A stretch of 63,346 nt of DNA, the filler included, from Rhizaria sp. SCN 62-66 (taxonomy: Eukaryota): assembly GCA_001724265.1 (NCBI GenBank). It is 3 parts of 3 records of this genome, joined end to end, with 100 filler letters (N's around TTAATTAATTAA, not from the genome) between each part and the next. Parts side by side here need not be neighbours in the genome. Positions count along the whole stretch, not along the records: positions 22,950 to 47,632 come from MEDY01000436.1; 2 more parts are not named here. The stretch is one strand, 5' to 3'. The position numbers were made by a program, and so were the translations under genes. This document shows positions 22,490-58,232 of the stretch, piece by piece; position 1 is the stretch's first letter; each line of letters opens with the position of its first letter. The notes beneath the pieces are model-generated. The model had not been told where the DNA came from. It did not search any database and saw only the letters and a program-made list of their open reading frames with translations.

Positions 22490-22849
22490 ATGGTACGTAT
22501 AGCATCTTTACGGCGTGTATTTTTTAGGTATTATTTTGCAGAGCTATTATCCCCAGCTTACTAGGTCGAAAACGGAATGGCGCACACCCGCTACCTCGCC
22601 ACACCGCACTCACTCTCCTCTTCCACTTATCCCCTCTTCTTCACCTGCCTTCGACCTGGCATGTGCTTTCGGTGGTCTCTCGCGCAGTCTGAGTCCAAGA
22701 AGCCGTTCCGCCAGTACTTCTTCCGCGGTGTCGAGGCCGAGAAGATGATTGACCTCACCGAGAAGGAGTTCATCGGCATGGTCCACTCCCGTGCCCGCCG
22801 CTGCTTCAAGCGCAACTCGATCAACGAGCACCTCCGCAAGCGCCTCACC
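22490..22849 (+). CDS. RPS15: 40S ribosomal protein S15 (uS19), 5' part, truncated by contig end
   Basis: ATG 22490-22492, intron 22493-22687 (GTACGT..CGCGCAG), then SESKKPFRQYFFRGVEAEKMIDLTEKEFIGMVHSRARRCFKR. This matches the eukaryotic uS19 N-terminus (KK.FR.F.FRGV...L.D....F......RARRR). Confidence 0.92.
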
Positions 22850-22949
22850 NNNNNNNNNNNNNNNNNNNNNNNNNNNNNNNNNNNNNNNNNNNNTTAATTA
22901 ATTAANNNNNNNNNNNNNNNNNNNNNNNNNNNNNNNNNNNNNNNNNNNN
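22850..22949. other. Artificial contig-joining linker N44-TTAATTAATTAA-N44
   Basis: Exactly 100 nt, with a 12-mer giving stops in all six frames. An identical copy is at 47633-47732, and genes are cut on both sides. Confidence 0.97.
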
Positions 22950-28874: not shown

Positions 28875-29237
28875 GCTCGCAACGTGTCCTCAGTCAACGT
28901 GCTCACAGTACGTGCGTGTGTGCGGACTGAAGAGCGAGTCAATGACACATTGCAACCAGGCCAACGCTCGGGCCATGTGACAGCACACATGATATATGAT
29001 TAGCACGTGACAACAATGACTCCGTAGATCGGCAATGGCGCTCGTTCTTGTCCAGGAACAAAACACAGTGTGATAAACTCAATGAGACACTGACAACTTT
29101 AAGAAATGAATAAAAAACATAGTTTGTTTATGAAATCGATTTAAGTAGCATTAAAACTAATATAGCGAATTGGTAACTCAAAAGTGCTAGTTAGATTCAA
29201 GTCGTAAATAAACACTGGTGTAGGAATGGTGAAACAA

Positions 29238-32200
29238 TTACAAGTGCCGCTGTCCAGCGACCGCCTGCAGTGAGCGCCGTTGCAACGTGGCCAGCGCGCC
29301 GAGCAGTCCGCGCGCGTCCCCGCCCAGCAACACCTCGGCCGCCGCAGCCACGTTGCTGTTGTTGCCGCTGCTTGTGCCGGGACGGCTGCCTGGCACTGCT
29401 GTGCCGCGCGAGTTGCGCTGTGCTGTGACGGGCCGCAGCCGCGGGCGCGGGTTGGCTGAGGGCGCGAAGTGGCTCGCGTTCACGGCCACCGCGCCCAGCG
29501 GCACGCGCTGAGTCTCCTGCGACTCCTTGTTCTGCTGCTGTTGTTGCTGATGACGGAGAGCAGACGCAGGAGTCGACGAAAGAAGACGCGCGAGCAGGCC
29601 GCCGCCGCGCGAAGAGGGCTCCAGCACCAGCACAACGGGCCGCGGCACGGCGTAGAGGCCGCCGTGCGCCACCGTCGCAAACACGTTGCATTTCGCGGCC
29701 ACACCGCTGCCGCACAGACAGGGCTCGGGTGCGGGCGTTGTGGAGTGGCAACGGGCGCGCGAGCATGCTGTGCTGCTGCAGCCGCAGTCCCAGTAGGCAT
29801 CAGCGCCCGCGCGCGCGCCCTCGTCGTCGTCAACAAACGCAGCGCACGCGGCGGCGACGAGCGGCGAGGCGTGGCCCAGCACGGGCGCGAGCGCGGCGGC
29901 GGCGCGCGGCCACTGCTGCTCGGGCCCGACGCTGTCGTAGCCCGCGCCGGCGAGCAGACACAGCTGCATCGCGCGCGCCGCGGCCGCGGCCGTGGCCACC
30001 GCGGCGGCCTCGGACGCGACCGAGGGTGCAAGCCGCGACCCGCGCTGGGTCTGGAACTGGTGCACCGCCACCCAAAGCCGCGTCGCGCGCGCGTGCGCAG
30101 CCAGCGCAGCGGGCCACGCCGCGGCCGCGTCGGCGGCTCCGCGTACACTGGCCACCGCCTCCGCGCCCGCGCCCGCGCGCGCCAGCGCCACCGTCAGCGC
30201 GGGCGCAGGCGCGTCAATCAGCGAGCCCAGTAGCACCGTTGCGCGCGCAAGCGCAAGCGCGGCCGCGGCCACGTGCGGCGCCGCAGCCTCTGTCTCGGCT
30301 TCGTCTTCGACCGCAGCGTCGTCCTCGCTCTCATTGTTGTCGGCGGCTCCGTCTGCGTCGGGGTCGGAGTCATCGAAGCTGTGGTGGCGGCGGTGCGTGT
30401 TCTTGGCCTTAGCCTTGGCTTCCTCACTGCGACGCACGGCGCCGCGGACGGCCTCGCGCATGCTATCGCGCGCGGTGTCGAGCAACGCCTCGGCGGCAGC
30501 GACGCGCCAGCCCCAGAGGGCGAGCAGGAGCGCGACCCACGTCTTGGGCGAGGCCGCGGCCGCCGCAGCGGGCACCAGGCGCGTGAACAGGTCGCCGACG
30601 CGCACGTCGGCGCCGGACCACAGCGCTTGCAGCAGCAGCGGCAGCCACCACGCGTGCTGCTGCGGTGAACCCGGCGCCTGTGTGGGCAGCGTAGGCGCCA
30701 AGAGCGGCGCGAGCGCCTCTGCCGTTGCCTGCGACGCAACCGAGTGCGGGAACAGTGCGCGCGCACGGAGTCTAGCGGCTCTCTCTCTGCCGGGCACGAC
30801 GCTGCCCGCGCGCTCGCAGTCGCCAGCGATGGCCGTCAGCAGCCGCGTGACAGCGCCGCCACGGCCCGCTTCGACCGACTCCTCCGCGAACGTCGCGGGC
30901 GTCATCGCCGGCAGCGTGCAGCCCGGGAGCCGCAGCGCCTTGGCCAGGGACAGCGCTGAGTCAAGCGCGTCCCGTGGCGCAACCTCGACTTCGGCGGCGG
31001 CCGCAGCAGCGGCACCAGCAGCTGCAGCCGCGGCGGGCAGCGGGGGGCCGGGCGCCGCAAACGCAGGCGCAAGCGCGGCGGCGCAAAGGGCCTCGCCCGC
31101 GCGAGCACCGGTCGCGGAGACGGTGAGCAGCGCCAGCGGTGGCACCGCGCCCGAAGCGCACGTGCCGCGTAGACGCAGCGCGCGCAGCAGCGTAAGTAGC
31201 TCGCCGCACGTGCCGGAGTCGGCGTCAGAGCCGCCGTCGGTGTTGCGGTTCTGACTGCGGCGAAGCGCAGCGGTGTAAGTCGCAGCGGCTGCCGCGCCGC
31301 CATCGCTGCGGGGCACGCGGTGGGGAGGCGCAACGGTGAGCAATAAACGTAACGCGGGCAGCGAGCGCGCGGCGACGAGCAGCCTGTGCGCGACGTGGCC
31401 CGCAGCAGGGACGACCGTGGGTGCGCCCGGCACCGCGCGCGTGGCCAGCCGCGCGCAGAGCATCCCGTCGAGGCCCGGCAGCGCGGGGCCGGGCGCGTGC
31501 ACCGGCGGCGCGCCCGCACACACCCAGCCCAGCACGCGCGACTCGAGAGCGTGCGCGCCGCGCGCTGCCTCGGCTGCCAAAAGCAGCACGCGCGCCAGAC
31601 CCGGCAGCGACGCCGAGCCTGCGGCTGCCTCTGCGGCGGCTGCCAAGTGCCATCCTGCGCAGAGCAGGCCTGCCGCAGCCGCAGCCATGACTGGTGCTGC
31701 CTGGGCAAGCGCTGTCACAGTGTAGGGCTCCAGCGGAAGCGCAAGTGGCGCTCCGGCAGGCGAGGTGACCGTGAGCAGCGCAGCCGCAGCTGCAGCGTCG
31801 CCGGTTTGCAGCACGCGGTGCACGAGCGCAGGCGCCAGGTGGCCGTGGCCGCGCGCCAACGCCACGTGGAGAGGTGTTACCAGCGCTGCCAGCGGCAACG
31901 GTGGCACCACGGCAGCATCCGAAGTCGCCGACGTCGAAGGCGTCGCGTAACGCGCAGCTGCATATTGGCTGGCCTCATCAGCCGAGTCGTGCGTTGCAGC
32001 CACCGGAGAGTCACAGCAGGCAGTGCGCGCGGGATGCTCCAGAAGCGGGTCGCGCGCGCGTAGAGCCACAAGCGCAGTGCCAGCGGAGGAAGCAGTTGCG
32101 GCAGCAGAAACCGCCGACGCTGTGATTGCTACCGCAGTGATGTCGCCCGGTGCGTCATCAGAGCCTGTGCTAAACCAGGCCCAGTTGCGCGGGTCGCCCA

Positions 32201-35200
32201 CTGCGGATGCAGAGGCCGGGGCTGGAGCAGTGCCAGAGCGCGAGCGCCCGCGCGCCGATGGCAGCGACCAGCCCGCAGCCGCCGTTGCAGTCGCAGGGCG
32301 GCTCGCGCAGATGCCGTCGGGACAGCCGCGCGAAGGCAGAGTCAGGGCGTCCACGGCCGTCGTCACCGCAGTGGCCTCGGCGCGCGCGCGCACGCGGGCC
32401 GCAGCAACGGCACCTGCGCCAGCAGCCCACCACAACGCGTCAACGGCTGTGCCGTCGCCGCCGAGCGCGCCCGCCACATCTGCTGCGCCCGCGGCAGCAG
32501 CCTCGGTGGAGCGCGCCGAGCCTGCGGCGTCGGCGGCGGAAGTGGCAGCGACACGCATCAGCAGCTGCAGCACGCGCTCATGCCCGTGCCAGGCAGCCAC
32601 GTGTGCCAGTGTAAGTCCGCGCACAGTGAGCGCCGTCAGCACGGGGAACGCGCGCAACGGCGATACCAGTGCAGGCGCGGCGCCGGACACGCACGCAGCG
32701 TGGGCAGCGGCCGCAGCGCGGTGGTAGCCAACAACTGACAGCGGCGCCGGCACTGCGCTGTGTGGCACAGGCCGTGCAGCAAGCAGTAGCGGTGAGAGCG
32801 TGCAGTATGGCTCACAGCGGCGCGCGGCGTCGGCGGCCGCGCGGGGGAAAAGCGCCAGCAGGCGTTCACGCTGACGCCACATGTGGAATGCAGCCTCATC
32901 AGAGTGTGTTGCAGTTGCCGCCGCCACGGCAGTCGCGGTCGCCTCATTCGCGGTCAGCAGCGGACCCCACGCGTCCTCGGGCGCCACCAGTCGCACAGGT
33001 GCCAGCTGCGGCAGTGCCGCAGCGGTGCGCGCGGCGCTCGCTGTCGTGGGCCGCGACAGCGACATTGACAATGCACTGCTGGTGTCCGCGCGTCCGACTG
33101 TCGCGCGCGAAGTCGCAGGCCGCGTGGAGTCGGCAGAAGACGCGGCTGCAGTCAGCGTACGCTGCTGTGCTGGTGGCAGGAGCAAAGACGGATGCGGCGT
33201 TAGACTGGGTGCACGCTTGTCGTGTCCCAGACTGTGTTTGGAGGGATGATAACCCACCATGCCCGCATTGGACGCCGCCACACGCGCACGCAGAGCCAAC
33301 GCCGCCACGGACACCACGGCCTGGCGCTCGCCATCGGCAGCCGCCAGCGTCGTGAGGGCCGAAAATGGTTTGTCGCTGGCGCTGCGGCGGTGGCGCGAAA
33401 GTGGACGCGCTGAGGTCGAACCAGCAGTCGCTGACGCTGTTGCTGGACGGCTCAGCGAGACCGTATTGTGCGTCATTTGTCTATATGAGAGCGCACGGAT
33501 GCCGCGCGTTGCGGCTGCAGCTTGGGCGAGTGAGCGCGAGAGCGCACGCGCATCGTCACCTGCAGTCGAATCATGCGCGTTATCTGCACCGCTTGTGTCG
33601 TCCTCGTTTGCATCTGCGGGTGTGGCAGCGGCTGCGAGTTCCGCACTTGCAGGTGCAAATGCCAAAGTGAGCACAATAACGTCATCGCGACAGAGGCGCG
33701 CACCGAAATGCAGTAGGACACGCGCAGCGTCGGCATCACCGCGCGAGGCTGCGAGCATAAGCGGCGACAAACCGCGCATATCAGGCCCGCACAACGCATC
33801 CATCGCAGGCGGCAGCGGCACAGTCGCATGCGAGTACGTGAGCCCACCGGCCACCGCCGCGGCAGCACCACGCACGTTGTCCTTCGCGACCTCGTCTACA
33901 AGCGGCGCGGCGCTGCTGCGCGCGTCGGGAGCGCCGTCCGCGCAGTCGTACGCAGCGCGCACGCACAGCGCGTGCAGGAACGCCAGCGCGCCTGCGCCCA
34001 CAGTCGACGCGGCGGCTGACGCGGCGGCAGCGGCGTCAGCTGCGGTCGCTCCGGCGGCAGACGCGGCTGCAGTCGCAGTGGCAGCGGCCGCGGCAGCAGT
34101 TGCAGCAGGCGGTGCGGTGCGCGCCTCAACGCCCCAGTGTGCGGCAGAGCGGCGTTCAGAGTCCGTCTCAGCGATCGGCAGCGTGGACACGCGGCCCGCG
34201 CGCTGGCGCAGCCACAGGGGCCAGGACGGCGACCAGCACGCGCATGCGCCAGCGCCGGCGTCAGCACTGCGGCGGCCGTGCGCGTGGCGCGCGCGGCAAA
34301 GCGGGGTCACGCCGCTCGCGGCCCAGTGCAGCGCGCTCTCGAGCACGCAGGCCGCCACAGCGGGCGTCGGCGCGTGCAGCAGCTCAACGGCGGCCGCGAT
34401 ACGCGCGCGCACGCCGCCAAGCGCCCACGCGGGCACCGCACCAAGCCCGGGTGGGCTCGAGGCCAGCATGTGCGTCTGCGCGTGCCGGCGCACGGGCGCG
34501 GTGGACAGCAGCAGCCGCAGTGCGTCGGGCAGGTCGGGCCCGAAGTCCGCCTTGACCGCGGCAGCAAGTGCTGCGGCAGCCACCGCGGCAGATGCCAGTG
34601 GCAGCACACTTGTGTCGCCCGAGAACACCGCGGGGAGCGTGATAAGCGCAAGCGCAGTCGCGACAGCCAACGGCAGCGCGCGCGGTGCGACAGACAGCAC
34701 TGCGCGGGCGGCAGCGATGCTGATCATGCCGCCGCTTGTGTTGCCGCAGTTGTCTAACGCAAGCGGGCCCGTGTGCGGCAGTGGAAAACTCGTGCCCACG
34801 CGTCCACACGCGCTCGCGCGCGCGGACATGCCTGCGCCAGCGCTGCCCGCAGCTGCAGCCGTCGCAGCGGCAATCGCTGCATCGGACGCAGCAGCGAGCG
34901 CGGCCGCGACACTTACTGTCTCTCCCGTCACCCCAACAGTCTGGGCCAAGGGCGCCGCGAGCTGCAGCGCGTGCACGGTATGGCCCGTGCCCTTGTCGTA
35001 GTAGGCGCGCGATCGCAGCGCGGCTGTGACGGCCTTATGAGCAACAAGCGTGCCGCGCGCGTTCGCAGCGCCCGCAGCCGCGGCGGGCAGAGCGGCGGCA
35101 GCGGCTGTGGCCGAGATCTGTTGGTCCTCCGCCAGCAGCACGGACTCAGCCGCTGAGACGGGCGACAGGTACGCGTTGCCCGCGCAACCGCACTCGCAGT

Positions 35201-38200
35201 CCCCGAAGTGTAAACCTGCAGACAACGCGTTCTCTGCGGGGAGCAGCAGTGGGGGCGTCGAAACGGCCGCAATCGCGCGCGCGACGGCGGCGTCGGCGAC
35301 GGCAGCCGCCGCGGCGGTCGCGGCCGCGGTGCGCACGCGCGCAAACTCGCTCTCGCGGCCGCTCTGCAGACGCGGGTGCAGCGTGAAGCCGCCCATGTCG
35401 CACGCGCCCGCGGGCACGAGCGCAAGCGGCGCACCCGTGGTGGCCTCGCGCAGCAGCGCCGCAGCGTCCGGAGGTGGCAGTGGCGTCGCAGCGGAGGCGG
35501 CCTCTTCGCCACCAGTCTGGCTCCGCAGGCGCGCGTCTGTGGCGGCGCGTGCGCGCGCAGCGGTGAGGTGCGAGGTGTCGGAACGCAGCACCCAGGGCCC
35601 CTCGCTCAGCGGGTCGTTCTTGAGCCACGCGGAGCGAATCGCGCCGTTGAGCAGCGGCCGGTCGCCGTCGGCCAGCGCGGCCAGCACAGGCGCAGCCAGA
35701 GCCTGCGTCGCGGTCGCGCCCGCAACCGCGGCCACGGCGGCCGCGACCGCCGGCGGCGCGAGCCACCAGTCGGGGTGCGCGGTCGACTGGCGCAGCGCAG
35801 TGCGCGCGCGCCACGCCAGCCCCAGCGACGCCGCCGCCAGCCGCTGCACGCGCGCGCCCGCGTCGTCGGCCGCTGTCGTCGCAACACCCGCCACAGGCGC
35901 AGACCGTCCGGCCGACACAGCGGCCACCGCAGCAGCGCGAGCGCGCGCGCGGGCGTCGACAAGCGCGGCGACCGCGGCAGCCGCGGTTGCGTCAGCGGCG
36001 GCGGCAACGGCGTCAAGCGTCGCCAAGTCTTCCGCGGCGAATGCCGCAGTCAGACACTCGCCTGCGCCCGCGCGCGCCCACCGCAGCATCGGCGCCGCGG
36101 CAGACGCGACTGCGGGCGCTGCCAGACGCGGTAGCGCAACGGGCGCGCTTGCGAGCTGTGGCTCGGCGCGAGGCGCAATCAGCGCGAGCGGTAAAGGTGG
36201 CCACACAGGCGTGGCGAGCGCGAAGCCGCCCTCGGTGGCCGAGGCAGCCTCTGCGTCGGCCAAAGCAGCCAGCAGCGACGTCGCGGGCCGGCGCGCGCGC
36301 GCGGGCGGGGCGGGTGGCGGCGGAGGCGCGCGCCCCGACGGCAGCGGCAGCCCGAGACGCAGCGCTGCAAGAACGGGCCCGTCCACGACAGCGTCCGCGT
36401 CGTCCGCGGCAGCCGCGGTCGCCGCTCTGTCGGTAACGGCTGGAGCAAGCCAGGCGCACTGCGCGAGCACGCGCGGGTCCAGCGTCGGCAGCAGCCGCAG
36501 GAGCAGTCCGTGGGTGCGCGCCGTGGTCGCCAAGACCGGCGCGCCCGCCGCCGCGCCGCCGCGCAGCACGCCCGTCACGGCGGCGGGCACGAGCGCGGCC
36601 GACACGGCCACCGACGTGCGCGGCGGCGCGGCGCTCGCGTTGCCCGCGGCCGTGGCGGGCAGCGGCGTGGGCCCCGGAAGCGGCGGCGCCGCGGAGAGCG
36701 GCATCGCGCGGCCTCGCGGCAGCGCACGCGCGGCTGTAGTCGGGCGCACAGAGGACGCAACTGAGACCGCGGTACCAGGCGGCGACTGTAGCGCGACTGT
36801 GCGCGGGGAGTCGTGATCTGAGTGCGTCTCTGACTGTGTCTGCTGCGAGTGCGCGGGCGATGGCGGCCGCGAGCGCTGCTACTGCTGCTGCGCCTGCGGC
36901 GGCTCGTGGTGCGCCTGTGGCGGCTTTGGCGGCACGCTGAGGAGCGCGGCGTGGCGCGGCGAGTGCAGCACCATGCCTGGCGACATGTGCGGCTGCGCGT
37001 GCCAGTGCGGGTGCGACGGCGTCGAAGCCCCGGACTCCGCCTCCACCGCCGCGCTCGCAGGTGCCGCGTGCAGCGAGAGGCCGACCACCGATGTTGTCGC
37101 TGGCGCAGCCGCTGGCGCAGCCGCTGGCGCAGCCGCTGGCACGGGAGTGGCGCTCGGCGCGAGTTGCTGTTGCTGCTGGTGCGGTTGCTGCTGAGGCGGC
37201 GCGTGATGCGGCGGCGAGTGCACGCCGAGCTGCTGCCAGGGGCTCTTGAGCGGCACGCGCGGCGTTACGGGCTGCAGAACCCCAGTCGCCTGCGCAGTGT
37301 GCGGCGGCGCGGTCGGATCGGAAACGTTAGACGGCGACAAAGTCGACGCGTTGCGCGGCGATGCGACTCCTGGCGCGCTCCGTGGGGACAGACCAGTTGG
37401 CGCAGCCGTGGCCGTCGTCGCCGGCGTCGCAGTGTCCGCGAGCGGCGTCGCGACGGCCGGTGTGATCGCGGCGACGGTCGAGCGCGGCGTGGGCGCGTTG
37501 CTGCCGCTGCGCATGAGCATCAGCGACCCGCGCTCCGGCGCGTGTGCGTGCGCGTGCGCGCCCTGCGCGTGCTGGCCCGATGGCGCCTTGGCGAGCCGCG
37601 TGGGCGGCAGCGACAGCGCAACCGCGTCGCCGCCGGACGACGCCTGGTCCTCCTCGGCGTTGTTGTCGTCGTCGCCGGTGCTGTCGCCCTCGTCCTTGAC
37701 GACGGCCACGGACGCGGTGGCCACGGACGACAACGCAGGCGCCTGCTTCTGCTCACTCTCCGCGGCAGCGGCCCTGGCAGCAGCCGCCGCCTCCGCCTGC
37801 GCCTGCGCCTGCGCCTCCGCCGCGGCGTCGGCCTTGACCTTGGCAAGCGCGTCGGCCTCCGCCTGTGCGGCCGCGGCCTTGGTCTGCTCGCGGCGCAGTA
37901 GCCACGCGGCGAGGCTGCCGCCGCGCGAGCCGGCGACGGCCGCGTTGCCGCCCCCTGGCCATTCCGCGCCGTCCGCCGCCTCAGTCTCAGCCACCGTTGC
38001 AGCTGGGAGCTCTTCCACGGCAGGCGACGCGCCGGCCGCCGCTGCGTCGCAGTCGGCGGCGATGTCGGACATGGAGGCGAGCGCACTCGCGCGGCTGCTG
38101 CCGTGGCGCGCGGTATCGGCGCCCGCGCGGCCAACGATGATACGCCGCAGCACCGCCGCCACGGGGTCCGCCGCGCGCGCCGCCGCCGTGGCCTGCGCGG

Positions 38201-40658
38201 TGGCAGCAGCCTCGGCCGCCGCCGTCTCGGCAGCTGCCGCAGCCGCAGCGGCCGCGGCAGCAGTGGCAGCGGCAGCGGTAGCAGCAGCAGCGGTAGCCGC
38301 GGCGGCAGCAGCAGCGGGGTCTTCCGCGACGCGCGCGGTCCGGCCGGACGGCGGGCGTTGGGCGGCCGCCGCGAGCGCCGCTAAGCCGGGGCCGGGCGCG
38401 GGCGCGGGCTCCTGCGCCACGCCGGCGACGGCGACCGCGAGCGGGCCCGCGGGCGTGAAGGACGCGCGCGAGGGCAGTTGCGGCGCGCGCGGGCCGCCCT
38501 GGGCGCTGCGACTGCGCACGCGCTGCTGCGCGAGCTCGCTCTCGCGCGCCGACTCAGCGGCGGCCACGGCGGCCACGGCGGCCGCCACGGCCGCGGTGGT
38601 CGAGAGGTGGAACCCCGTGCCGCCCAGGTGCGGGAGCTCATCGCCGCTGCCGTGCGAATGCGCGTGCGGCAGCGTGCGCGGGCGCGCGGCGCCGACGGGG
38701 CTGGCGGGCGGCGAGAGCGCAGCGCTGTTGTCGCTGCCCAGCTCCGTCTCGCCGTCCGAGACTGGGAACAGCGCGTGCGACAGCGGTGGGAAGAGCTGGT
38801 CCACCGAGCTCAGCGCGCCTGCACGCGCGCCGCGGGCCGCCGGGAGCGCGGCGGTGGGTGTGGCCGCGCCCATGGCCGTGTTGGGCGTCGCAGGCACCGT
38901 CGGCGCGGGCAGCAGCACCGGCCCCGCGCCCTCGCGCAGCGCCAGCGCCAGCGACGCGTCCCCCGTCGTCGCCCCCGCTGTGGCGCCCGCCACCGACGCC
39001 GCAGCAGCCGCGGGGCCGGTCTGAGGCGCGGGCGTACGAGCCGTGAGGCGGCGGATGTCGGCGAGGATGAGCCCCAGCGCTGGGTCGTCCGCGGGCGGGA
39101 TGTGAATCTCGCTCCCGTCCGCCATCACGACCCCCGCGCTGCCCGCGGACGCGTTCGCACTTGCACTCGCAGGCGCAGGCGCACTGGCAGGCGCGCTGGA
39201 GGCGGCGTCGCTCAGCCCCGGGCCCGTCGCTGCTACGGACGCGGGCGCATCAGCAGCGCCCGCAGTCGCAGCGGGTGAGACGACGATCTGGTCAAAGTGG
39301 AAGCGCCGGCCGCGCGGCGAGGTCACGGACGCGATTGATGCCACCGGCGTGCTGCCCACCGCGGGCACCGCCAGCTGGCCGGCGCCATAGGTTGGCGCTG
39401 AGGGAGCTGTTGCTGCGGCAGCGGCGGCGGCGGCGGCGGCGCGGACGCTGGCAACGGCCGCCACGCCCGCGGCGGTCGCGGCGGCGGTCGCGGCGGCGGC
39501 AGCGGGGCCCGGAGTCGCCGTGGGCGTCGGGGGTGCCGTCACGCCGCCGCCAACGCCGCCGCCAACGCCGCCGCCTGCGATTGTGGAAGTGCTTGGAGAC
39601 CGCATCAGGCTGCCGCGCGCGCTGCCCACGGCACCGGTGGCCGTGGCGGAGTTGCCTGCGCTGGCGCGCGGAGACAGCACGCCCATCGCGCCACCGGCAG
39701 CACCGGAATAACTGTTACTGCTCGTATTATTGTTGCTGCCGCTGCTTGTGCCGACGGCGACGCCGACGACGCCGCCCAGCGCAAGCCCCGCCGCAGCCGA
39801 GGGCGTCGACGGCACCGCCGGGCCCGCCGCGCCGGTCGCAGCGCCCGCACCCGCGCCCGCAGAGCCCATGCCAGCGCCAGAGCCAACGCCAGCGCCGGTG
39901 GAGACAGTGGGGGCGGGCCGCTGTGGGCCCTGCGCGAAGCCCGCGGCGATGGCGGCCAGGTTCACGCCCAGGCTCGGCGTGCGCGCGTGCCGCGACCGCG
40001 CCGGCCCGCCCGCGCCGGCGGACGGCGTCGTCGCGCCAGGGGCCGGCGCGAGGCCTCCGCTGCCTGTGGTGGTCAGAGACAGGGGCGCCAGCGCGGCGGC
40101 TGCGGCGGACAGCGGCATCAGGCCCGCGGCGCCCGCGGCGTAGCTGCCCGCGCGGCGGTGGCCCGGGCGCGCGGGGCCCGGCGGCGCGCCGCTCGGCGGG
40201 GACGCGACAACGGAAACAGAAGCTGGAGCATAAGCAACAGCAGCAGCACCACCAGTTACCGCTGCAGGCTCCGACGATGAGGTTGCCTCAAAATTAGCAC
40301 CGTCGCCGCCCGCAAAGCCCGCAGCGCCCGCAGCAGACGGCGCATCGGGGCCATGGACCGGCGGTCTCGTGATCAACACCTGCGTCGCCGCTTCGTCCGC
40401 GGCCGCGGCGGCCGTCGCGGCGGCGAGCGCTGCTGCCTCCAGGGCGTCCTCGTGCGCCGCGAAACTAAAGCCAGAGCGCGAGGCGTTGCGCAGATGGCGC
40501 GCGCCGGGAAAGCCCGGGTTCGCGGTCGGCTTGCCGGCGGAGGTGAGAGGCAGGTTGAACCCCTTCGGCGCGTTGGTGGGCGTGAGGATGTGTTCGGGCG
40601 CGACGCCCAGCTTGGGGTCGATCTCGGCCACCGACAGGCGCCGGATGAGGCCCTCCAT
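29238..40658 (-). CDS. Giant ankyrin-repeat-containing Ala-rich protein, ~3806 aa, with one in-frame TAG at 36881-36879
   Basis: Track ORFs 36879..40682 and 29238..36749 are in the same frame. The 129 nt between them are open and GC-rich (QAQQQ*QRSRPPSPAHSQQTQSETHSD...). ATG at 40658, TAA at 29240-29238. Ankyrin motifs: GLSPLMLAASRGDADAARVLLHFGA, GLTLAHVAAWHGHERVLQLLM, VTPLHVALARGHGHLAPALV. Confidence 0.78.
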
Positions 40659-41140
40659 CGGAGCAGTGCAGACCAAGTGCAAGATTCCAAGGCTAGGTAG
40701 ACTTGAGTAGTGAAGAAAGTCCTAGGCAAGCTAAAGGGATGGTGGGAGGCGGAAAGCGTGGCGACTTGGTGAGCGATGTAGCTGTTACTCGAACGATTGG
40801 ACGATAACACGCACAGTGTCGGTTTAAAGATATATTGACTCATAATAATATAAAAATCATAAAGAACGCAAACGTTTTCCATCGGAGCAGTTGTTCGCAC
40901 TTAAATTAACGGATCTTCTGGAGCAGCACAGTCTCTCAAAATCCGCGAACAAGCACGTTTGTTGTGGCCATGGAAAGGGGGTAGAGTTGGCTAGAGTCAG
41001 ACCCGAAAATCCACTTCACAAATCAAGGTTGCAATGAGCTTTCATGTCCGTGTCGCGTTGTGCAGCTACTGTATAGTCTACCGTATCTTATCATCTTTAT
41101 TGTACTTCATCCACTTCTTTCCTTCACCCAGGCCTGCGTC
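40659..41140. promoter_or_regulatory. Putative bidirectional promoter between the ankyrin protein and SURF1
   Basis: A 482-nt spacer between divergent ATGs. Positional inference only. Confidence 0.5.
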
Positions 41141-43261
41141 ATGTTTGGCCGCTGGGTTGCCGGCAATGTCGAGCGCCAAGCGTCAGCTCAGCTCGCAGCT
41201 GCCAGCTCGTCTCGGCGCGCCTTCTCGGTGACGCCTACGGCTGACCCCACCGCGTTCACGCGCGCCCCGCCCGCGGGCATCCCTGCCGCGGCGCCCGCGG
41301 CGGGCCCCGGCGCGGGCGTGCCGCCGCCCGCGAACAACATCCCGCTGACGATCGCGGCGCCCTGGACGTTCCGCCGAGTGGCGGGCGCGCTCTTCTTCAC
41401 CGGCACCAGCCTCCTCACCACGGGGCTCTGCGCTTGGCAGATCCAGCGCCACTTCTGGAAGAAGGAGCTGCTGGCCTCGCGCGAGGCCGGGCTGGCGCTA
41501 CCGCCCGTCCCGCTCGAGCAGCACTTGCCGCAGCTCGTGGGCACAGCGTGGGACGCTTTCCTCGCCTCAGCCGCGGCCTTCCGCATTGTCGACCTGCCGA
41601 CCTCGCTCGAGCTCACGGCCGCGCCGCGCCACGTGACGCTGCGCGGACGCTTCGACTACGCGCGCGAACAGCTGGTGGGCTTCGCGGCCCCGCCGCTCGA
41701 CACGGGCAACGTCAAGAAGGGCGACGCCGTGCGCGGCTACTACGTGTGCACGCCGCTGATGCTCGCGCCCGAGGCCGCACTCGCGCTCCCGCTGCGCCCC
41801 ACTATGCCCGTCTTGCCGGGCGCGCCCACGCGGCCTTCAGAGGTGCTCATCCGCAACGCCGCGCGCGCCGAGCACAAGAAGCATCTCGCCGCGCGCGCCG
41901 CCATGCCGCCCGCCGAGCTCGCCGCGCTGCCGCCTCTGCCCGACGCCGAGGCCTTCGCCGAGGCCGCGCTGCGCGACGCGTGCCCGCGCGACGACGTCGT
42001 CGCCCTGCACACCGCGTTCCCCACCGCCGAGTCCACTGCCGCGCTCGGCGCGCGCCTCAGCGCAGAGAGCGGGGACGCCGACGCCGCCGCCGCGGGCGTC
42101 GCCACTGCCCCGGGACTCGCCCGGGCGGCGCAGCTGTCCCCCGTGCGCGCGACGGTGTGCGCGCAGGAGGTGCTGGTGAATCGCGGCTGGATCCCCTCCA
42201 CGCACGCGCTCTCATACCTTGCCTCGAACCGCCTCCCCGAGCCCACCGACGCCGAGCTCGCCGCCGAAGCCGCGAGTGCCGCAGACAACGGCAACGGCCA
42301 CAGCACTGGTCGTGACGGACTGACGGCGGCAGCGGACCGCGCGGCAGCGACGAGCGCGCTTGTCGGCGCCAGCAACGTGCGCACCGCCCGCGACGACGGG
42401 CTCAGCACGGTGACGGGCGTGTTCTGGTTCGGGCCGCGGCGCAGCGACTCGACGCCGCCGACGCTTGCGCGCGTCAAGGACTCGCCCGCGCTGGCGCACC
42501 AGATCGCGTACCCGTCGGTGCTGGCCGCGGCGGCGCAGGTCCCTGCTATCACAATCACGGCCTTCGTCGACACACCCGCGGCGCCGGGCGCGGGGCCGCA
42601 CGCCCAGGCCGCGGCCGCGGAGGTCGGCGTCGTGCTCGAGACGGCCGCGGCCGTCGCGGCGGCGCGGCTGCGTGGCGAGCGCGAGCTCGAGTCGCTGAGC
42701 CGCAAGGTCGCGGCCGCGGCGCTCGAGAAGGAGCGGCTGCAGCTGCTGCAGGACGGCAAGGACGCGTCGCAACTGCCCGTCGTGGCCGGGCTCACCGAGG
42801 AGGAGCGCGCCGACGCGCTGGGCTACCGCGCGCACCCCACGCAGGCGCTGCGCGACCTGGGCCACACGCTTTCGACGGCGGCCGAGAGCGTTGTGGCGGC
42901 CGGCGACGACCCGATCGGGCAGGGCACGTGGGCCGGTGCCATCGCGCAGCAGGGCGGCGCGCTCACCGCCGCGTTCGAGGCCGTGCCCGTGGTCGAGATG
43001 ATGGGCGCGGCCGCGGGGCTTGTCGGCCGCTCGCAGCGCGTTGTGGCTAAGGACACGGAGCTGGGCCAGGCCACCTCGGTGCGCATGCAGCTGCTGCGCA
43101 AGAGCGAGGCGGACTACTTCAACTTCCACTCGATGCCCGCCACGCACATCGTCTACGCCGCCACCTGGGGCACGCTCTCCGCCGTCGGGTACTACATGGC
43201 TTACACGCGCTTCTGGCGCAAGCGCGTCTACAACCCCGCGCTCTTCAAGTCATTCAAGTAA
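41141..43261 (+). CDS. SURF1: SURF1/Shy1 cytochrome c oxidase assembly factor, 706 aa
   Basis: SURF1 motifs in order: GLCAWQIQRHFWKKELL, VTLRGRFDY, GYYVCTPL, VLVNRGWIP, TVTGV, HIVYAATWGTLS. Presequence-like N-terminus (...SSSRRAFSV). First ATG at 41141 (the track start at 41060 is GTG). Confidence 0.93.
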   Translation: MFGRWVAGNVERQASAQLAAASSSRRAFSVTPTADPTAFTRAPPAGIPAAAPAAGPGAGVPPPANNIPLTIAAPWTFRRVAGALFFTGTSLLTTGLCAWQIQRHFWKKELLASREAGLALPPVPLEQHLPQLVGTAWDAFLASAAAFRIVDLPTSLELTAAPRHVTLRGRFDYAREQLVGFAAPPLDTGNVKKGDAVRGYYVCTPLMLAPEAALALPLRPTMPVLPGAPTRPSEVLIRNAARAEHKKHLAARAAMPPAELAALPPLPDAEAFAEAALRDACPRDDVVALHTAFPTAESTAALGARLSAESGDADAAAAGVATAPGLARAAQLSPVRATVCAQEVLVNRGWIPSTHALSYLASNRLPEPTDAELAAEAASAADNGNGHSTGRDGLTAAADRAAATSALVGASNVRTARDDGLSTVTGVFWFGPRRSDSTPPTLARVKDSPALAHQIAYPSVLAAAAQVPAITITAFVDTPAAPGAGPHAQAAAAEVGVVLETAAAVAAARLRGERELESLSRKVAAAALEKERLQLLQDGKDASQLPVVAGLTEEERADALGYRAHPTQALRDLGHTLSTAAESVVAAGDDPIGQGTWAGAIAQQGGALTAAFEAVPVVEMMGAAAGLVGRSQRVVAKDTELGQATSVRMQLLRKSEADYFNFHSMPATHIVYAATWGTLSAVGYYMAYTRFWRKRVYNPALFKSFK

Positions 43262-43725
43262 ACTGACTTCGTGAGAGCGTAATTAAAAAAATAAGAAAAT
43301 GTAGCGTGACTTTTACTCAGAGTGCGTGTTCTAAACCAAAACAATTATATTTATATGATATTAAACACAAACTTAAATACATCAAAAACTTAAAAATAAC
43401 GCTGCCCCTTCATGTTTTTAGTTGGAAGTGCGCCGAACGTCGTCCAAAATCACGACCTGCAGCCTTCGAGCCGTTGCGGCCAGGTGCGAGACATCGGCGA
43501 ACGGGCAGACAAACGAAGCAAACTTCAGACAATGCATACGCTATCATGACAGCGTCAGAAAGACTTGCGTTTCAATTTTGGAAATGAACATTTCTTATTA
43601 TGAGTCATCTTCCTCCTTTCTACTTTTTGTGACCTCATATCATTGGTAACGACCGGCCGCTCTCGTAACCTTCGCCCCTGCAGCTTCTCTCCCAACATCC
43701 ACGCCGCTCTCGGCACAAACCACGC

Positions 43726-46700
43726 ATGAGTGAGTTCCAGCAGCGCTTCCAGGGCCGCATGGCTGTTGTTGGTCGCACTGGTGGCTATGAATCCCACTCA
43801 CAAGCGTACGTTTCGTCCCTATGCACACACCCTCCAAACACACTGCCAACGTTTCGCTTGCAGTGCTCACTTGCTCCCATCCTTCTTGTTTCCTTCGCTT
43901 CAACAGCCCTGCAACTCCTTCACAACGCACCAGCGCCTTGAATTCCCGCCGTTCCTCGAACGCCCGCACCCCTGGCGCAGCAGCAGCGCGCGCAAGCGGC
44001 GGCGCCGCCCCCGCTGCTGCTGGCTTGGGCACCTCTGCCGCCACCGCTGCACAGCCCCCGACGCCGGACCTGGACGCGGGCGCCTTTGCCGGCGACGATG
44101 ACGCCGCCGCGGCCGACGCCGCCGCTATGGTCGCCGCGCTTGCCGACGACGACGACATCGACTCTGACGACGACGGCAACAACGGTGACAACCGTGGGAG
44201 CGCTCAACGCTCTCCTGTCGTCCCCGCTCCCACAGCGACGGCGCCTGCAGCGGCGGTAGCGACGGCACCCCAGCGCGTGCCCAGTACTGCCGCCGCTGCT
44301 GCTGCGGTGCCCGCTCTGCCGCTGGGCGCGATGCTGCCGCGCGCGGCGTCGCTGCTGCCGCGCGCCAACATGCTGATGCAGCCCCAACAGCCTCAGCAAC
44401 CTCCGCCTCCACAGCAGCAGCCGGCTGCTGCCGCGGCGGCGCGTGCTCCTGCCCCCGCTGCGGCCGCGGGCGCGTCGCCTGTTACGTTTTCGTCGTATTT
44501 CTACAGCAACACGTACCAGCAGAACGCGGGCTCCCCGATTGCTCCCCCGCCCGTTCCCGCGCCCGCGCCTGCGCCGGCCGCTGCGCTGCCCCAGCCTCAG
44601 CCGCAGTCCCATCCGCAGCAGCACGCACACGCGCACGCGCAGGCCCAGGCGTACGTGCCCACCGCGGCCGCGACCGCGTCCGCGCCCATGCCGGTCTCAG
44701 TCGCGGATGCCGGCAGTGGCGGCTACAGGCCCGCGTCGCGGCCCGGGTCGCGGGTGCGGCCGCTGGCGGAGGCCGCCGCCGAGGCCGAAGCCTTTGCCGA
44801 CGCTGCCGTCGCCTCTGCGCGCAGGCAGGTCGAGGCGCGCCACACGCCCGATGGCAATAGTAATTACAATCACGCGAACGCCAACGTGTCGGCAGCTCAG
44901 CCCGGGCCCAGCTCTGGCTCTGGCTCTGGCTCTGGTGTGACGCGGTTTAGACGCGCGAGCGGAGCCGCGGCGGCGCAGGCGGTGGCGGACGCGCTCGACG
45001 CCGCCATGTCCGCCAACCACGGTCACGGCCACGGCGGCCACGCTAATGCTGCTGCCCCCCAGGGTGGGTACAGTGCGGGACACGGCGGCGGCGGCGTCGC
45101 GTACGGGGGCTACAACGCCGCGTACAGAGTCGGGGCCGCGGCGCGCGCTACCCCCGTGCCCCAGGTCGCGGTAAACAGCGGTGACGGCGACGACGAGTTT
45201 GCGCACGCCGCGGCCCACGCGGCCGCGACCACCGCCCCCACCCCGGTGCCGGCGCCCGTCGCAGTCACCGCGCAGCCGCGGTCGCGGCCCGCGTCGGGCG
45301 TGCGCGGACTCGCGGCCGCCGGCGCCGCCAGCCTCGCCGCCCCACACGCGTCCGCACACGCGCAGACGAATGCGACTCACCGCGCGACGCCCCCAGTGCA
45401 GCCCATCGTGATCCCCTCTCAGCAGCATCACCAGCAGCCGCAGCAGCAGCAGGGACAGCACTCTGCGCCCCGCGGCCGCAGTGCTGCGCCGCCGCAGCCG
45501 CCGTCGCCGCGGTCTGGCAAGCCGCGGTCGTCGGCGGCCGAGGTTGCTGCGCTCATCGCCGCGCTCGAGCCCGACGCGCACTTTGCCGGCGTCCGCAGTG
45601 CAGATATTAATGTCATCAGCAACGGCGATGCGCACGGCGGTGACGACAGTGCGCGGGCAACCGCAGTGGCGCCGGCCCCCGCTGTGTCCGCGAGCGCGCG
45701 CGTCGAATCCGCCCGCAACACACACACCAGTGCGAGCTCGGTCGGCGTGAATGATGCTGCGGCTGTGACCAGGATCACGGTCGCGAACCCCGCCGCGCTG
45801 CTCGCGCTCTTCGGCCCCGCCGCGCCCGCTGCAGCGCCCGCGTCCGCGACGCCCGTGCCGTCTGTGTCGGCCACGCCCGTGTCGGCGCACCGGGCGGCGG
45901 CGGCGGAGGGTAGCGCGCGCTCACGCTCGCGCTCGCGCAACGGCAACGGCAACGGCGCCAGTCCCGCGGGCGCGGGCGCGGCTAAGTCCGCCGCCAAGCC
46001 TAAGGCCGGCGCAGCGGCAGCCGCGGGCGCCGGGGCGGCTCGCGCGTTCCGCCGCGCGCCCAGTGCCGCGCCCGCGCCGGGGCCCGCGACGGCCAACGGC
46101 AGCGCCTGCGGCGCGGGCTCCTACATGCGCCTCTGGGCGCGCGCAGAGGAGTACCACGGCAACGGCGCGGCCTCTCCCGTCTACGCCGCGCCCGCGGCAG
46201 CGCCTGAGCCCGAGCCTGCGGCTGCAGCTGCGGCGCAGGGCAACGGGAGCAACACGTTCCAGCAGTCCGTGCACGGCGACGGCAGCGGCTACAACAACGG
46301 GGGCTACCCACAGCATATGCAGCAGCAGCAGATGCAGCAGCAGGACCCGTACGGCGTGCAGGGCGCTGCGTATGGCAACTACCCGATGCCGCAACAGCCG
46401 CAACAGCAGCAGGTGCAGTACGGCTACGGCGGTACGCAGGACTACGCCAGCCCGCACACTGCGTACTCCTATCCGCAGCCTCAGCAGCAGCATATGCAGC
46501 CCCAGCAGCAGATGCAGATGCAGACTCCTCTGCAGATGATGCAGGCGGCGCCGATGGGTTATCCGCAGCAGCAACTGCAGCTGCATCAGCAACAGCAGAT
46601 GCTCATCGCGCAACACCAGCAACAACAACAGCAACAACAGCAGCAACAGCAGCAGCAGCAACAGCAGTTCCTGCAGCAACAGATGATGCAGCAGCAACAG

Positions 46701-47632
46701 CAGCAGGAAGAGGAGGCGCGGGGCGCTTTGTCGCCGCAGTCAGCTAAGGCAAGCGCGCCCCGCTACAAGCCCAAGTCGCTCAAGGACTGGCAGGTACGTT
46801 GCGCACGAATAATCAGTACTATACCTCATATTGTTAAATTCAGTATTATAATCTGTATTATTCTTATTTTCCGCGTCTCATTTGCTTTCCCTGTATGGTA
46901 TCTCACTCTCGCTGCCCTTGCTTTAACTCCGCTCATCGTGATCGTTCCCATGCGTAGACGCGCGCTGCGATCGCGCCGCCGCCGACGCTGGGCGCGGACC
47001 TGTTTGCGCCCGCAGTGGTCGAGGCCGCCTCGCGCAGGGACAAGATGCGCGCCTACGCCGGCGACAACAACTCGCGGTACGTCATTGCAGCACTAAGTTA
47101 CAAACACGTGATATGGTATCTTCAAAATCTCGACTCTCTCTATCATTGCTCTTCTCTCACTCCCTCTGTGCTTGATTATCTCTTCTTTTTGTATTCCCCT
47201 CTCATATAGCAACGTCCAACGGCTCGCCCGCGCGCGCGAGCGTGACTTCGCCTCCGTCCCCACCGTCTCATCCTCTGCTTCAGCCCCAGCGACAGCTGCC
47301 GCGTCGGGTGCGAGCGACTCCGAGTCCGCTGCCCCGGCGCGGGACGCCATCCAGCCGACGCCTCGGCCGACTCCACGCGACGCCTCCGCCGCCTCGGCCT
47401 CGGGCGCGGTGCCGACAGGCGCGACGCCCAGCGTGTCCGCGAGCGCGAGCGTGACGGGCAGCGGCGGCAGTCTGCGTGCGCACCCCATCGCCGCGCATCC
47501 GGGCTCACTCGCCGCAAACGCGCTCGCGCGCGCGCCGGGGCCCGCCGTCGCCGCCGGCGGCTACGCACCCGCCGCGGGGGGGGGCGGCGCAGCGGGGGCC
47601 GGCACGGCCGCTGCGGGCGGCGCGGGCGCGGC
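43726..47632 (+). CDS. JHY-like ciliary protein, 4 exons visible, 3' end truncated
   Basis: Exons 43726-43805, 43907-46793, 46958-47076, 47210-47632+. All three introns begin GTACGT, end in YAG and keep frame. The spliced segment RYKPKSLKDWQ-TRAAIAPPPTLGADL...ASRRDKMRAYAGDNNSRN resembles the JHY motif YKPYTLKDY...LGPD...keYa....N (recalled consensus). Confidence 0.7.
46601..46706 (+). repeat. CAG/CAA polyglutamine tract in the JHY-like gene
   Basis: Encodes QHQQQQQQQQQQQQQQQQFLQQQMMQQQQQQ. Confidence 0.9.
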
Positions 47633-47732
47633 NNNNNNNNNNNNNNNNNNNNNNNNNNNNNNNNNNNNNNNNNNNNTTAATTAATTAANNNNNNNNNNNN
47701 NNNNNNNNNNNNNNNNNNNNNNNNNNNNNNNN
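47633..47732. other. Artificial contig-joining linker N44-TTAATTAATTAA-N44
   Basis: Same 100-nt structure as 22850-22949. Confidence 0.97.
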
Positions 47733-47858
47733 GAGGTCGACGATGTCGCCGACGCGGTAGGTGGTCTGGAACTTGGACAGGGCAACAGTGCCGTGAGTGC
47801 CAGCCTCCTTGGAGAACATGGAGCGCGTGCGAGCGCGGTAACCGAACGAGTGAGGCAT
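47733..47858 (-). CDS. RPL21: 60S ribosomal protein L21 (eL21), 5' part, truncated by contig end
   Basis: ATG at 47858 gives MPHSFGYRARTRSMFSKEAGTHGTVALSKFQTTYRVGDIVDL, matching eL21 (S.GYR..TR.MF......HG...LS.....Y.VGDIVD). Confidence 0.95.
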
Positions 47859-54142: not shown

Positions 54143-56505
54143 GCAGCGGTGTTCAAGTTCCCGTGACCGTGCGCAGCGGCAGCGGATGGGCAGCACGTGT
54201 CGGCCACAGCCCGGCAGCAGCGGCCGACAACGCCGCCCGCGGCCGCCGCTCCGCCCCGCGCCGCGCCCGCGGCCGCAACGGCGCCGGAACGCGCCGCGCC
54301 CGCCGCAACGGCCGGCGTCGGCAGTGCAAGCTCCAGGTGTCCGTGTTGCAGCAGCAGGCGCAGGTAGTTGTCCGCGCGGAGCACGCGGCGCGTGACGTCG
54401 CGGGCCGAGTGCGGGCGCGAGGGAAACAGCCGCGGCCCCAGCGCGGCGAGACGGCGCGCCAGCTGGCCCCACGACAGCTGCGCCAGCGCCTGGTCATCAG
54501 CCACGCCCAGCTCGGTTCGCAAAAATTCCGCCGTAGCGGCGTCCGCGGCGAGCGCGCGGACCACGGCGGCCGTCTGCCAAGCAAGGTAGAGCGCGAAGAC
54601 GAGCAGGTACAGGAGCACGGCGGCGGCCGCGGGGGACGGCGTGGTGGTGAAGAGCCTCGCAAAGGCCGAGAAGTCGAAGATGGAGCATTGCGGTGCAGGG
54701 CAATCAAAAAGATACGTCCAGCGCACGACAAGGAAGAGGAACGCCGAGAGCAGCACAGTGAAGGCCGTGGTAAGCAGGCGCGTGGCGCGGACCGCGAGCG
54801 AGCGCGTGTGTCCGCGCGCCGCGTGGTAGGCCAGCACCGACGCGAGGAACGCGTCCAGGTCCGCGACCGCGAGCGGCGGCTTAACTAACGGGCTCGACTC
54901 GATCCAGGGGTAGCGCTGCCGCGCCGCCGCCGCGACGGCCGCGACCGCGGCGGGAGCCACAGACGCCGCAGCGGCAGCGCGGGCGGCGGCGGCCACGGCC
55001 ATGGTGGCGCCGTCGCGAGGCGCGGGCCGCTCGGCCGCCTCGGCAGCCTCGGCGGCCTCGGCCACGGGCTCGGCCGCAGACTCGTCGGTGTGGCGGACGG
55101 GCGCAGCGCTGTCGCTGTGGGCGTTGACGCTCGCGGTGATGTTGACACGGCGGGCGTTCGCGCTCATGTTGCTACGGTTAAAGGGAGCGTAGATGTCGTC
55201 GTCGTTGTCATCTTGCGTATTGCCGATGTTGTTGCCGCTGCTGCTGTTGGGGTAAAAACCGTCCCCTTGGTAATAGCCGTTGTCGCCTTGAGTCACGCTG
55301 TTGTAGTTATTGTTGTTGTTGCTATCGCCAAGCAAGTCGGGGTACTTAAACCCCGGATAAGGATCCAAGGGGTCCATTACACTGTTATTAATGGCATTTG
55401 CTACCGTCACTTGAGCGTTAGCAGCAGCGGCAGCGGCCGCGGCAGCAGAAGCAGCAGCGGCGGCGGCGGCGGCACGGCGGGCCTGGCGCTTGCGCGCCTG
55501 TTTGAGCGCCGTATCGACGTCGGCGTCGGCCTCCTGCTCGTCGCTGCCGCTGCCGTCGCCAGCGCTGTCGCTGTCTGGGGGGGACCCGCGGCCACGCGTG
55601 CCCCCCGCGTTGCCGTTGCTGTTGCCCTCCGCGCCGGTGCCGTCGTCGTCGGGCGCGATGCTGTTAAGGTAAGCCGCGTACATCGCAGTGCCGTCGTTGG
55701 ACCAACCAGCGGCAGCAGCTGAGGAAGCTGCAGTCGGATTTGCGGCATCAGTGACGCTCTTGGCATTGCTGCCGGCGGCTGTCGTTGCTGCGGCGGCCGA
55801 GGGGAGCCACACAGCCTGTCCGGGCCCGAAATCAAGCTCCAACGCGTCACCGGCATTGCCATTGCCCGCATTGTTGTTGTTGTTGTTGCTGTAATTGTTA
55901 CTGTTATTGGGCGCGAGTGGCGGCGAGTAAACGTATCCATACCCGCTCACAGTCCCCGGTCCTCCCAGTCCGCCCAGTGCCCCCGGACCGCCCAGCCCGC
56001 CGCCGCCGCCGCCCGCCGCCGCGACGGCCGCGGTCACGGCCCCGGTGACAGCCCCCGCGGCGGAGGTCAGGACGGGGACGCCGTCCCGGATGACGTTGCC
56101 CGCCGTCTCGAGTCCGCGCTTCGCCGAATCCAGTCCGCGGCGCGCAGAATCGAGCCCGCGGGACGCCAGCGCGGCGGCCTGGGTGCCGGCAGCAGCTCCC
56201 GCGGCGGCGGCGGCGGTGGATGTGGCAGCGACGGAGGCGTGCATGCGCGCGATGACGCCGTTGGGGGCAGCGGGGGAGGGCGCCTGCTGCTCGATCTCGT
56301 GCCCTTGCGCCTGTTGCTGCTGTTGCTAATACTGCTATAGCTGTTGCTGTTGCTGGAGCTCGAGCTGCTGCTGGTACTGTTGTTGCTGCTGTTGCTGCTG
56401 TTGCTGCTGTTGCTGCTGCGGAGTCAGAGCTGGGGAGACGGGCACACCTGGGTAGAAAATCGGCGGCCCGCGCCTGGAGTCGTGCTGGAAAGGAAATTGC
56501 GACAT
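48737..56505 (-). CDS. ATG9: Autophagy lipid scramblase ATG9, 3 exons, ~2461 aa if the two N-terminal TAGs are read as sense (otherwise start at 56244)
   Basis: Exons 56505-49882, 49679-49338, 49156-48737. Introns 49881-49680 (GTACGT..AAACAG) and 49337-49157 (GTTCGT..CTAACGCAATTTTAG). ATG9 blocks in order: DLDAFLASVLAYHAARG, LTTAFTVLLSAFL, LSWGQLARRL, DVTRRVLRADNYL, LLEWSI, NLALLPF, RTWTLHARWLLGNTNELPH, AYISGAAAGVILLL, FLEVLSVALTPLVL, TVAVPGMG. Confidence 0.92.
56311..56418 (-). repeat. CAG/CAA polyglutamine tract with two in-frame TAG codons
   Basis: The minus strand reads ...CAG CAA CAG CAA CAG CTA TAG CAG TAT TAG CAA CAG CAG CAA CAG..., in frame with ATG9. Confidence 0.92.
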
Positions 56506-57242: not shown

Positions 57243-58195
57243 ATGAGCGCGCGCCCGCCGTCCCCGCGCATGACGCCGAGGCTGGGCTCCGCCCCGCCGC
57301 CCACAGTCATCCGCCCCGCCCCAGCGCTACCGCCACGCCAGCCCTCCTCCAACCCTAACTCCAGCGCCAGCGCAAACGCCAGCGCAAGCGCCAGCGCAAG
57401 CCAGCATCAGCAGCCACGGCAGCAGCAGCAAACGACCCCTGCGGTGCCGCGGCGCGCGGGCGTGCCGTTCCCGCGCACGGCTTCCTCCGCGGGCTACTAC
57501 TCGACACCCGACGGTTCGGCGCCGGCGTTGGGTGAGCGGCACTTAAACTCCATCCCGGGGCCCCACAACGTGCGCATCCCTGTCGCGGACGGCGCACTCA
57601 CCACGTCGTTTACCTTCTCCAACCGGCCCGTGCTCACCGCGGAGCGCTCGCTGCACCTCGCGCTACAACGCGTCAACAGCAGCGCCGGCAGCGGCGGCGG
57701 CGGCGGCGGTGGCGGTAATGGGGTCTCTGCTGGCAACCTGAACGGCGGCTACAGCAACAGCACGACACCGAGCAGACTGCGTGCGGGCAGCCTCAGCCGT
57801 GCCTCTTCGGGCGCCGGCGCCGGCTTTAATGCGGGTGCGGGCGCGGGCGCGGGCATTGGGCTTGAGCGAACAGCGTCTCGGCTGCCTCCCCAGTCTCCCG
57901 CCTACCCCAGCATTAACAGCAGCTATTACTACGGCAACGACACCAACGCGAGCGCGGGCGCGGGCGAAGGGCCGAACCCCCCCGGTGTGCTGGGTCCAAT
58001 GCGCCTGTCGGTGCTGCCGATCATTGCGGAGGCGTTTCACACCTCGGCCTCAGCCTCTGCGGAGTCGGGCGAAGCGGCTGGCCCGCAGTCGCAAATGCAG
58101 TCTAACGGCAACGGCAGTGGCAGTCCGGGGACCGTGGGCTGGGGGGCTGCCCCGCCGTATCTGCCCCCGCCTCGGCAACGCGGCAACGACTACGA

Positions 58196-58232
<37 letters not shown>

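Follow-up and report, generated by a model that had tools for sequence, protein, structure and literature searches.

Does an in-frame TAG within a run of CAG codons separate two genes, end one gene early, or stand for glutamine? The question arises at positions 36881-36879 (minus strand) of a 63,346-nucleotide stretch of Rhizaria sp. SCN 62-66 DNA, here called the window, which is built from three contigs with N spacers between them (22850-22949 and 47633-47732). The window has the character of a GC-rich eukaryote with few introns, and Pfam matches identified genes for a DEAD helicase, a RING-PHD protein, SURF1, ATG9 and a FYVE-C2-PRT_C protein. The sequencing runs that contain the stretch are from a bioreactor, wastewater and activated sludge. 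In attempts at placing the lineage, the ribosomal fragments were weakly, and about equally, similar to those of fungi, animals and kinetoplastids, and Atlas matches were at the family level only.

One gene with an in-frame TAG codon

Direct reading of the minus strand bore out what the first-pass annotation had reported for this site: positions 36890-36876 read CAG CAG CAG TAG CAG, followed by CGC TCG, and the TAG is in frame. It is codon 1260 and the sole stop in 3806 codons running from ATG 40658 to TAA 29240-29238, with 1259 codons in frame on its 5' side and 2546 (about 2550 in the earlier count) on its 3' side. The site has a full Q-stop-Q context, with Gln codons on both sides and C at +4. 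Gln accounts for 11 of the 100 codons 5' of the TAG and for 95 of the 3806 codons of the whole gene (2.5%).

If codon 1260 is read, the gene (29238..40658, minus strand) is a single, intron-less unit of 3806 codons ending in TAA; if UAG terminates, the product is the N-terminal part of 1259 codons (36882..40658, minus strand), in which no Pfam family was matched. The 3806-codon product is chiefly low-complexity Ala/Pro/Ser/Thr sequence in which ankyrin motifs are sparse. Its initial description as an ankyrin protein draws on one Pfam Ank match over the cut-off (28.3 bits versus 21.1), located 3' of the TAG at residues 1036-1063 of the post-TAG part (33690..33773, minus strand; coordinates converted by hand from residues), and on the related families Ank_2, Ank_4 and Ank_5, whose matches lie below the Pfam cut-off; the 1259 N-terminal residues are unmatched. 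A protein search with this gene returned only the query itself among 8000 scored, and no cross-species homologue.

The two apparent ORFs are supported as one 3806-codon gene, because a contig from another strain (X4, described below) has CAG at codon 1260 and because the composition is unchanged across the TAG. The 200 nt 3' of the TAG have a GC content of 0.73, against 0.32-0.52 after ten true stops in the window, and the 150 nt before the first in-frame ATG 3' of the TAG (36702..36704, minus strand) have a coding-like GC content of 0.70, against 0.42-0.54 before the eight first starts examined. That ATG corrects the earlier statement that the downstream ORF could be started only at a GTG, and the length of protein P0009 (2488 aa) fits a start there. 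A pair of genes, or removal of the TAG by a cryptic intron, could make use of this ATG or of the GT dinucleotide that the T of the TAG makes at 36882, but both arrangements are very improbable, given the lack of an AT-rich spacer or leader and the sense codon at the site in the other strain. Although 93 GT..AG intervals of 40-300 nt could remove codon 1260, every one has a GC content of at least 68%, and the two introns of a neighbouring gene, taken for comparison, have 40-41%. The initial observation that neither an AT-rich spacer nor an intron lies at the TAG agrees with these values.

Strain comparison

Contigs from four of ten listed sequencing runs (X1, X3, X4 and X5) were compared with the window over 29100-47600; runs X5 to X9 contain small shares of the stretch. 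Record 20 of X4, a run from another study, is a contig of 443 nt (depth 5.49) that covers 36736-37190 and has CAG at codon 1260, the difference being placed at 36881 by its distance from the contig end. Relative to the window it shows two differences and a 12-nt deletion, and the frame is kept. The evidence for the CAG allele is this single low-depth contig; no listed piece of X3 or X5 spans 36881. Across the eight X4 pieces listed, 14 of 3734 bases are unlike the window (about 0.4% divergence). The first-pass suggestion to look for CAG or CAA in related strains was answered with CAG. X4 is labelled RNA, yet record 24 keeps the intron at 47077-47209 unspliced, and intergenic DNA is also covered. 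Since the library holds an unspliced intron, X4 shows the allele and not a transcript; DNA or pre-mRNA is present in it, and we ruled out its use as proof of one transcript, which leaves a point in favour of two genes or an intron.

The T itself appears to be real. The TAG falls within an X1 contig of 10,147 nt (depth 27.5) that shows 0 differences from the window over 29100-37127, and the other X1 contigs that have G at the site have it only within 17 nt of their own ends, as expected of short repeat matches. The base error that had been listed as an alternative is therefore unlikely, with the limit that X1 may be the window's source. More generally, we consider it improbable that the T arose in assembly or belongs to a minority or heterozygous allele beside a working CAG allele, even though the other strain carries CAG, contigs drop rare variants, and a frame switch in the RING-PHD gene may likewise be an assembly indel. 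This switch, near 23500-23465 (minus strand), lies in GC-rich sequence without intron-like DNA and is either a real frameshift or an assembly indel.

Of 36 rows of differences, 32 were used, one seen only in X3 and three driven by repeats having been dropped. With the TAG site and four non-coding rows excluded, 17 of the 27 coding differences are synonymous (P 0.003 versus neutral; dN/dS about 0.32). Position 36881 differs between strains in the same way as two CTG/TTG synonymous sites. When changes in the window lineage were polarised by assuming GC-to-AT mutation, those 3' of the TAG comprised four synonymous and two missense changes (P 0.12, weak), with no relaxation visible.

Codon and stop usage

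A census of 17,165 codons in ten coding stretches of the window gave 738 Gln positions, comprising 578 CAG, 157 CAA and 3 TAG. TAG, at 0.41% of these positions (95% CI 0.08-1.2%), is the rarest codon of the census and is borne by two of the ten stretches; if it were synonymous with CAG, about 107 would be expected from the TTG/CTG ratio, so that roughly 35-fold fewer were seen. The ten gene ends comprise eight TAA, two TGA and no TAG, a result with P 0.03-0.35 for TAG use of 30-10%. The predominance of TAA is found despite mostly G/C third positions, and the 3' flanks are AT-rich.

Every internal stop, three in all, is a TAG within a Gln run; these stops are spread over two genes, each on its own contig. 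CAG-to-TAG makes up 54% of the transition routes to a stop, which gives P 0.16 for three of three internal stops being TAG. A Gln codon lies directly 3' of each of the three TAGs and of 158 of 577 CAGs. A rough calculation for the whole window predicts about 1.9 CAG-to-TAG changes in each lineage if these are neutral, against three seen, a number that takes in the ATG9 TAGs, not known to be strain-specific; about 1.6 other transition stops would be expected, against none seen (P 0.2). The genes identified in the window do not include eRF1.

The other two TAGs (56337 and 56328; together 56326..56337, minus strand) lie in the polyQ 5' segment of ATG9, after ATG 56505 and before the in-frame ATG that follows it at 56244. 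They are on a contig other than that of the 36881 TAG, have a Gln codon on the 3' side only, and belong to an exon (exon 1) in which 181 of 2207 codons specify Gln (8%). The first ATG (56505) follows an AT-richer leader, as other starts do. ATG9 could be made without its TAGs being read, because the second in-frame ATG follows both. The first-pass annotation had counted the TAG at 36881 as a third case of TAG for Gln, on a separate contig from ATG9; the separate contig stands, and the Gln decoding is putative. A search with the ATG9 N-terminus gave ten weak matches, none below 1e-10, and no cross-species homologue. Both ATG9 TAGs share a 15-nt cluster (56345-56320, minus strand) with CTA and TAT, two codons that are rare; the clustering suggests that changes toward AT came in a burst confined to this spot.

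The nearest relative with available DNA, the metagenome locus L001, is distant (48% identity, 53% GC). Its coding sequence, with 402 Gln codons, is free of internal TAG, and two of its six complete ORFs end in TAG, these ends being unchecked against homologues. No tRNA gene was found in the window or in L001. At 8489-8640 of L001, the TAG that closes an 817-aa ORF has CAG directly after it and then sequence of coding character (54% GC), and this end may be leaky.

Comparison with known systems

In Saccharomyces cerevisiae, according to a preprint (PMC13192750), Gln-flanked stops with C at +4 leak at 1.6-8%, inserting Gln; such readthrough rescued the growth of snf5 nonsense alleles, so that normal growth is possible, and the effect was linked to overall Gln content. 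The stop at 36881 is likewise Gln-flanked, in a Gln run and with C at +4, and Gln would be the residue inserted. The yeast alleles described there were screened or engineered and their readthrough was measured, whereas the present allele is natural and known from sequence alone. Overall Gln content here is only 2.5% in the large gene, and 8% in ATG9 exon 1.

In Iotanema spirale, UAG makes up about 8% of Gln codons, at conserved columns, and eRF1 has a T32G change (PMC5304391). The window resembles this organism in having UAA as the main stop, UAG unseen at gene ends and internal UAG at Gln, and differs in that TAG has a share of 0.4% and occurs in low-complexity polyQ only. A further point of difference is that SURF1 is present here, which suggests aerobic mitochondria in this organism. 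For the ciliates Hartmannula and Trochilia, PMC11687900 gives UAG shares of Gln codons of 18.5% and 31.8%, respectively, with UAG in 78-84% of genes; UAA is dominant and UGA second, as in the window, in which, by contrast, the share is 0.4% and two of ten coding stretches carry TAG. The share of TAG is thus at least 20-fold below that in the published UAG=Gln organisms compared. A literature search, with coverage short of most subscription journals, found no nuclear UAG=Gln code at less than 1% use, and a search on natural nonsense alleles gave no match.

Interpretation of the TAG

An ordinary segregating nonsense allele shows one C-to-T transition in one strain and a sense codon in another. 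The locus resembles this in having a single C-to-T change in one strain and CAG in the other, and departs from it in the number of TAGs, three spread over two genes out of roughly twelve, and in the lack of TAG at gene ends. We consider the TAG to be probably a recent strain-level nonsense allele in a leaky Q-stop-Q context, which takes up an alternative already named in the first-pass annotation and adds leakiness to it. This and the following probabilities are judgements and were not computed. Support comes from the sense codon and open frame in the conspecific strain X4 (record 20, depth 5.49) and from the RING-PHD frame switch, a break that is unexplained by any code change; CAG in X4 is equally compatible with a nonsense allele and with a synonymous change. 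Further points in favour are the rarity of TAG among Gln positions, the Gln codon 3' of all three TAGs, the second in-frame ATG of ATG9, the stop use of L001 and the 54% that CAG-to-TAG contributes to transition routes.

The sequenced strain would have gained, in one large gene, a recent transition whose presumed direction is CAG to TAG. UAG would most likely still be a stop, and most ribosomes would release the 1259-aa product without the ankyrin part. By analogy with yeast, a few per cent of ribosomes may read through and insert Gln, because tRNA-Gln would compete with eRF1 at a Gln-flanked stop with C next; the leak here may be small, because the yeast effect is tied to overall Gln content, which is 2.5% in this gene. 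The allele may persist because it is young, because the gene is dispensable in the habitat or because the leak is enough. The TAGs of ATG9 would lie within an expendable polyQ N-terminal extension, with ATG9 made from ATG 56244.

Several observations run against a nonsense allele. None of the ten gene ends is TAG; missense changes are purged, yet the three TAGs are near the neutral number of about 1.9; the two TAGs in ATG9, 9 nt apart, need two hits in a short segment; and the first ATG of ATG9 has an AT-richer leader like other starts. The lack of relaxation 3' of the TAG (four synonymous and two missense changes) argues weakly in the same direction. These data might instead reflect an incipient or ambiguous reassignment, in which UAG no longer serves to end genes, recognition by eRF1 is poor and tRNA-Gln decodes the codon mostly but slowly; CAG-to-TAG changes would then be nearly neutral, surface as strain differences and be held rare by selection. 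We regard this proposal, in either form, as doubtful but keep it as a rival, because so many TAGs in so few genes, none of them at a gene end, exceed expectation. It agrees with the distribution of stops (0 of 10 gene ends TAG and 8 of 10 TAA, with all three internal stops being TAG in Gln runs of two genes on two contigs), with a TAG number not far from the 1.9 or so predicted under neutrality, without other transition stops, with variation at 36881 like that at two CTG/TTG synonymous sites, and with the ATG9 5' stretch, which under this code would read as unbroken polyQ from the first ATG. On the other hand, a share of 0.4% requires that the change be no older than the 0.4% strain split or that selection act strongly against the codon, L001 apparently ends two of six ORFs in TAG (ends not checked against homologues), each statistic is weak alone (P 0.03-0.35), and the window has no tRNA gene. 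In addition, the first TAG case is ascertained, because the window was chosen for its TAG. That the organism is a fast-evolving, unplaced wastewater protist mid-way through a UAG-to-Gln change, with UAG gone from gene ends and mostly read as Gln, is a tentative picture to which we give little weight. A nonsense allele and an incipient reassignment form a continuum in readthrough efficiency.

An established nuclear code of the NCBI table 15 type, in which a cognate tRNA decodes UAG as Gln (Iotanema, Hartmannula and Trochilia are examples), would agree with the lack of TAG gene ends, the internal TAGs in Gln runs and the CAG of the other strain, but is highly improbable and was rejected: TAG makes up 0.4% of Gln against 8-32% in known cases, and about 107 TAG would be expected in the window if it were synonymous; three TAGs in 738 Gln positions have a binomial probability of about 1e-22 at a share of 8%; and two of ten coding stretches bear TAG, against 78-84% of genes in Hartmannula and Trochilia. 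The initial proposal of one gene read through UAG as Gln retains its single gene, whereas TAG is about 35-fold rarer than would be expected of a synonymous Gln codon.

As an ordinary nonsense allele, the best reading, the locus has modest value as a natural Q-stop-Q case and cautions against declaring a new code from a handful of TAGs in polyQ. If an incipient reassignment were true, it would exemplify nuclear stop-codon reassignment at a halfway stage for which population data are obtainable, CAG/TAG differences just emerging between strains 0.4% apart. Such an intermediate would let the order of UAG stop loss, eRF1 change and tRNA gain be tested, because in the published UAG=Gln cases compared the codon is already widely used.

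Other searches and features of the window

An exact pattern covering the 36881 site, with either allele permitted, had no locus in metagenome contigs. The protein collection had no exact match to the N-terminal piece, to the 56-aa leader ORF of ATG9 or to either gene in read-through form, which says little because the intact 5563-aa protein is missing from it too. This protein corresponds to an intron-less ORF of 5563 codons at 4630-21321 (plus strand), with no Pfam match in either half, and a small acidic ORF with a TAA end (22050-21668, minus strand) lies between it and uS19. RPS15 matched a single archaeal locus among genome contigs, and neither RPS15 nor ATG9 queries found any in viral contigs.

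Three of the six contig ends are inside ribosomal protein genes, eL6 (1-154), uS19 (22660-22849) and eL21 (47733-47858), all strongly divergent from solved homologues; duplicated copies may break the assembly. The FYVE-C2-PRT_C (MCTP-like) protein at 57243-61667 has close relatives in P0001 (70%) and P0002 (49%, also with a PH match). An MCTP search gave none in genome or viral contigs and 72 loci in metagenome contigs, among which only L001 was high-scoring beyond the C2 region (48% identity). The relative in L001 lies at 8900-11560, and the protein marks an intron-poor, unplaced eukaryote lineage.
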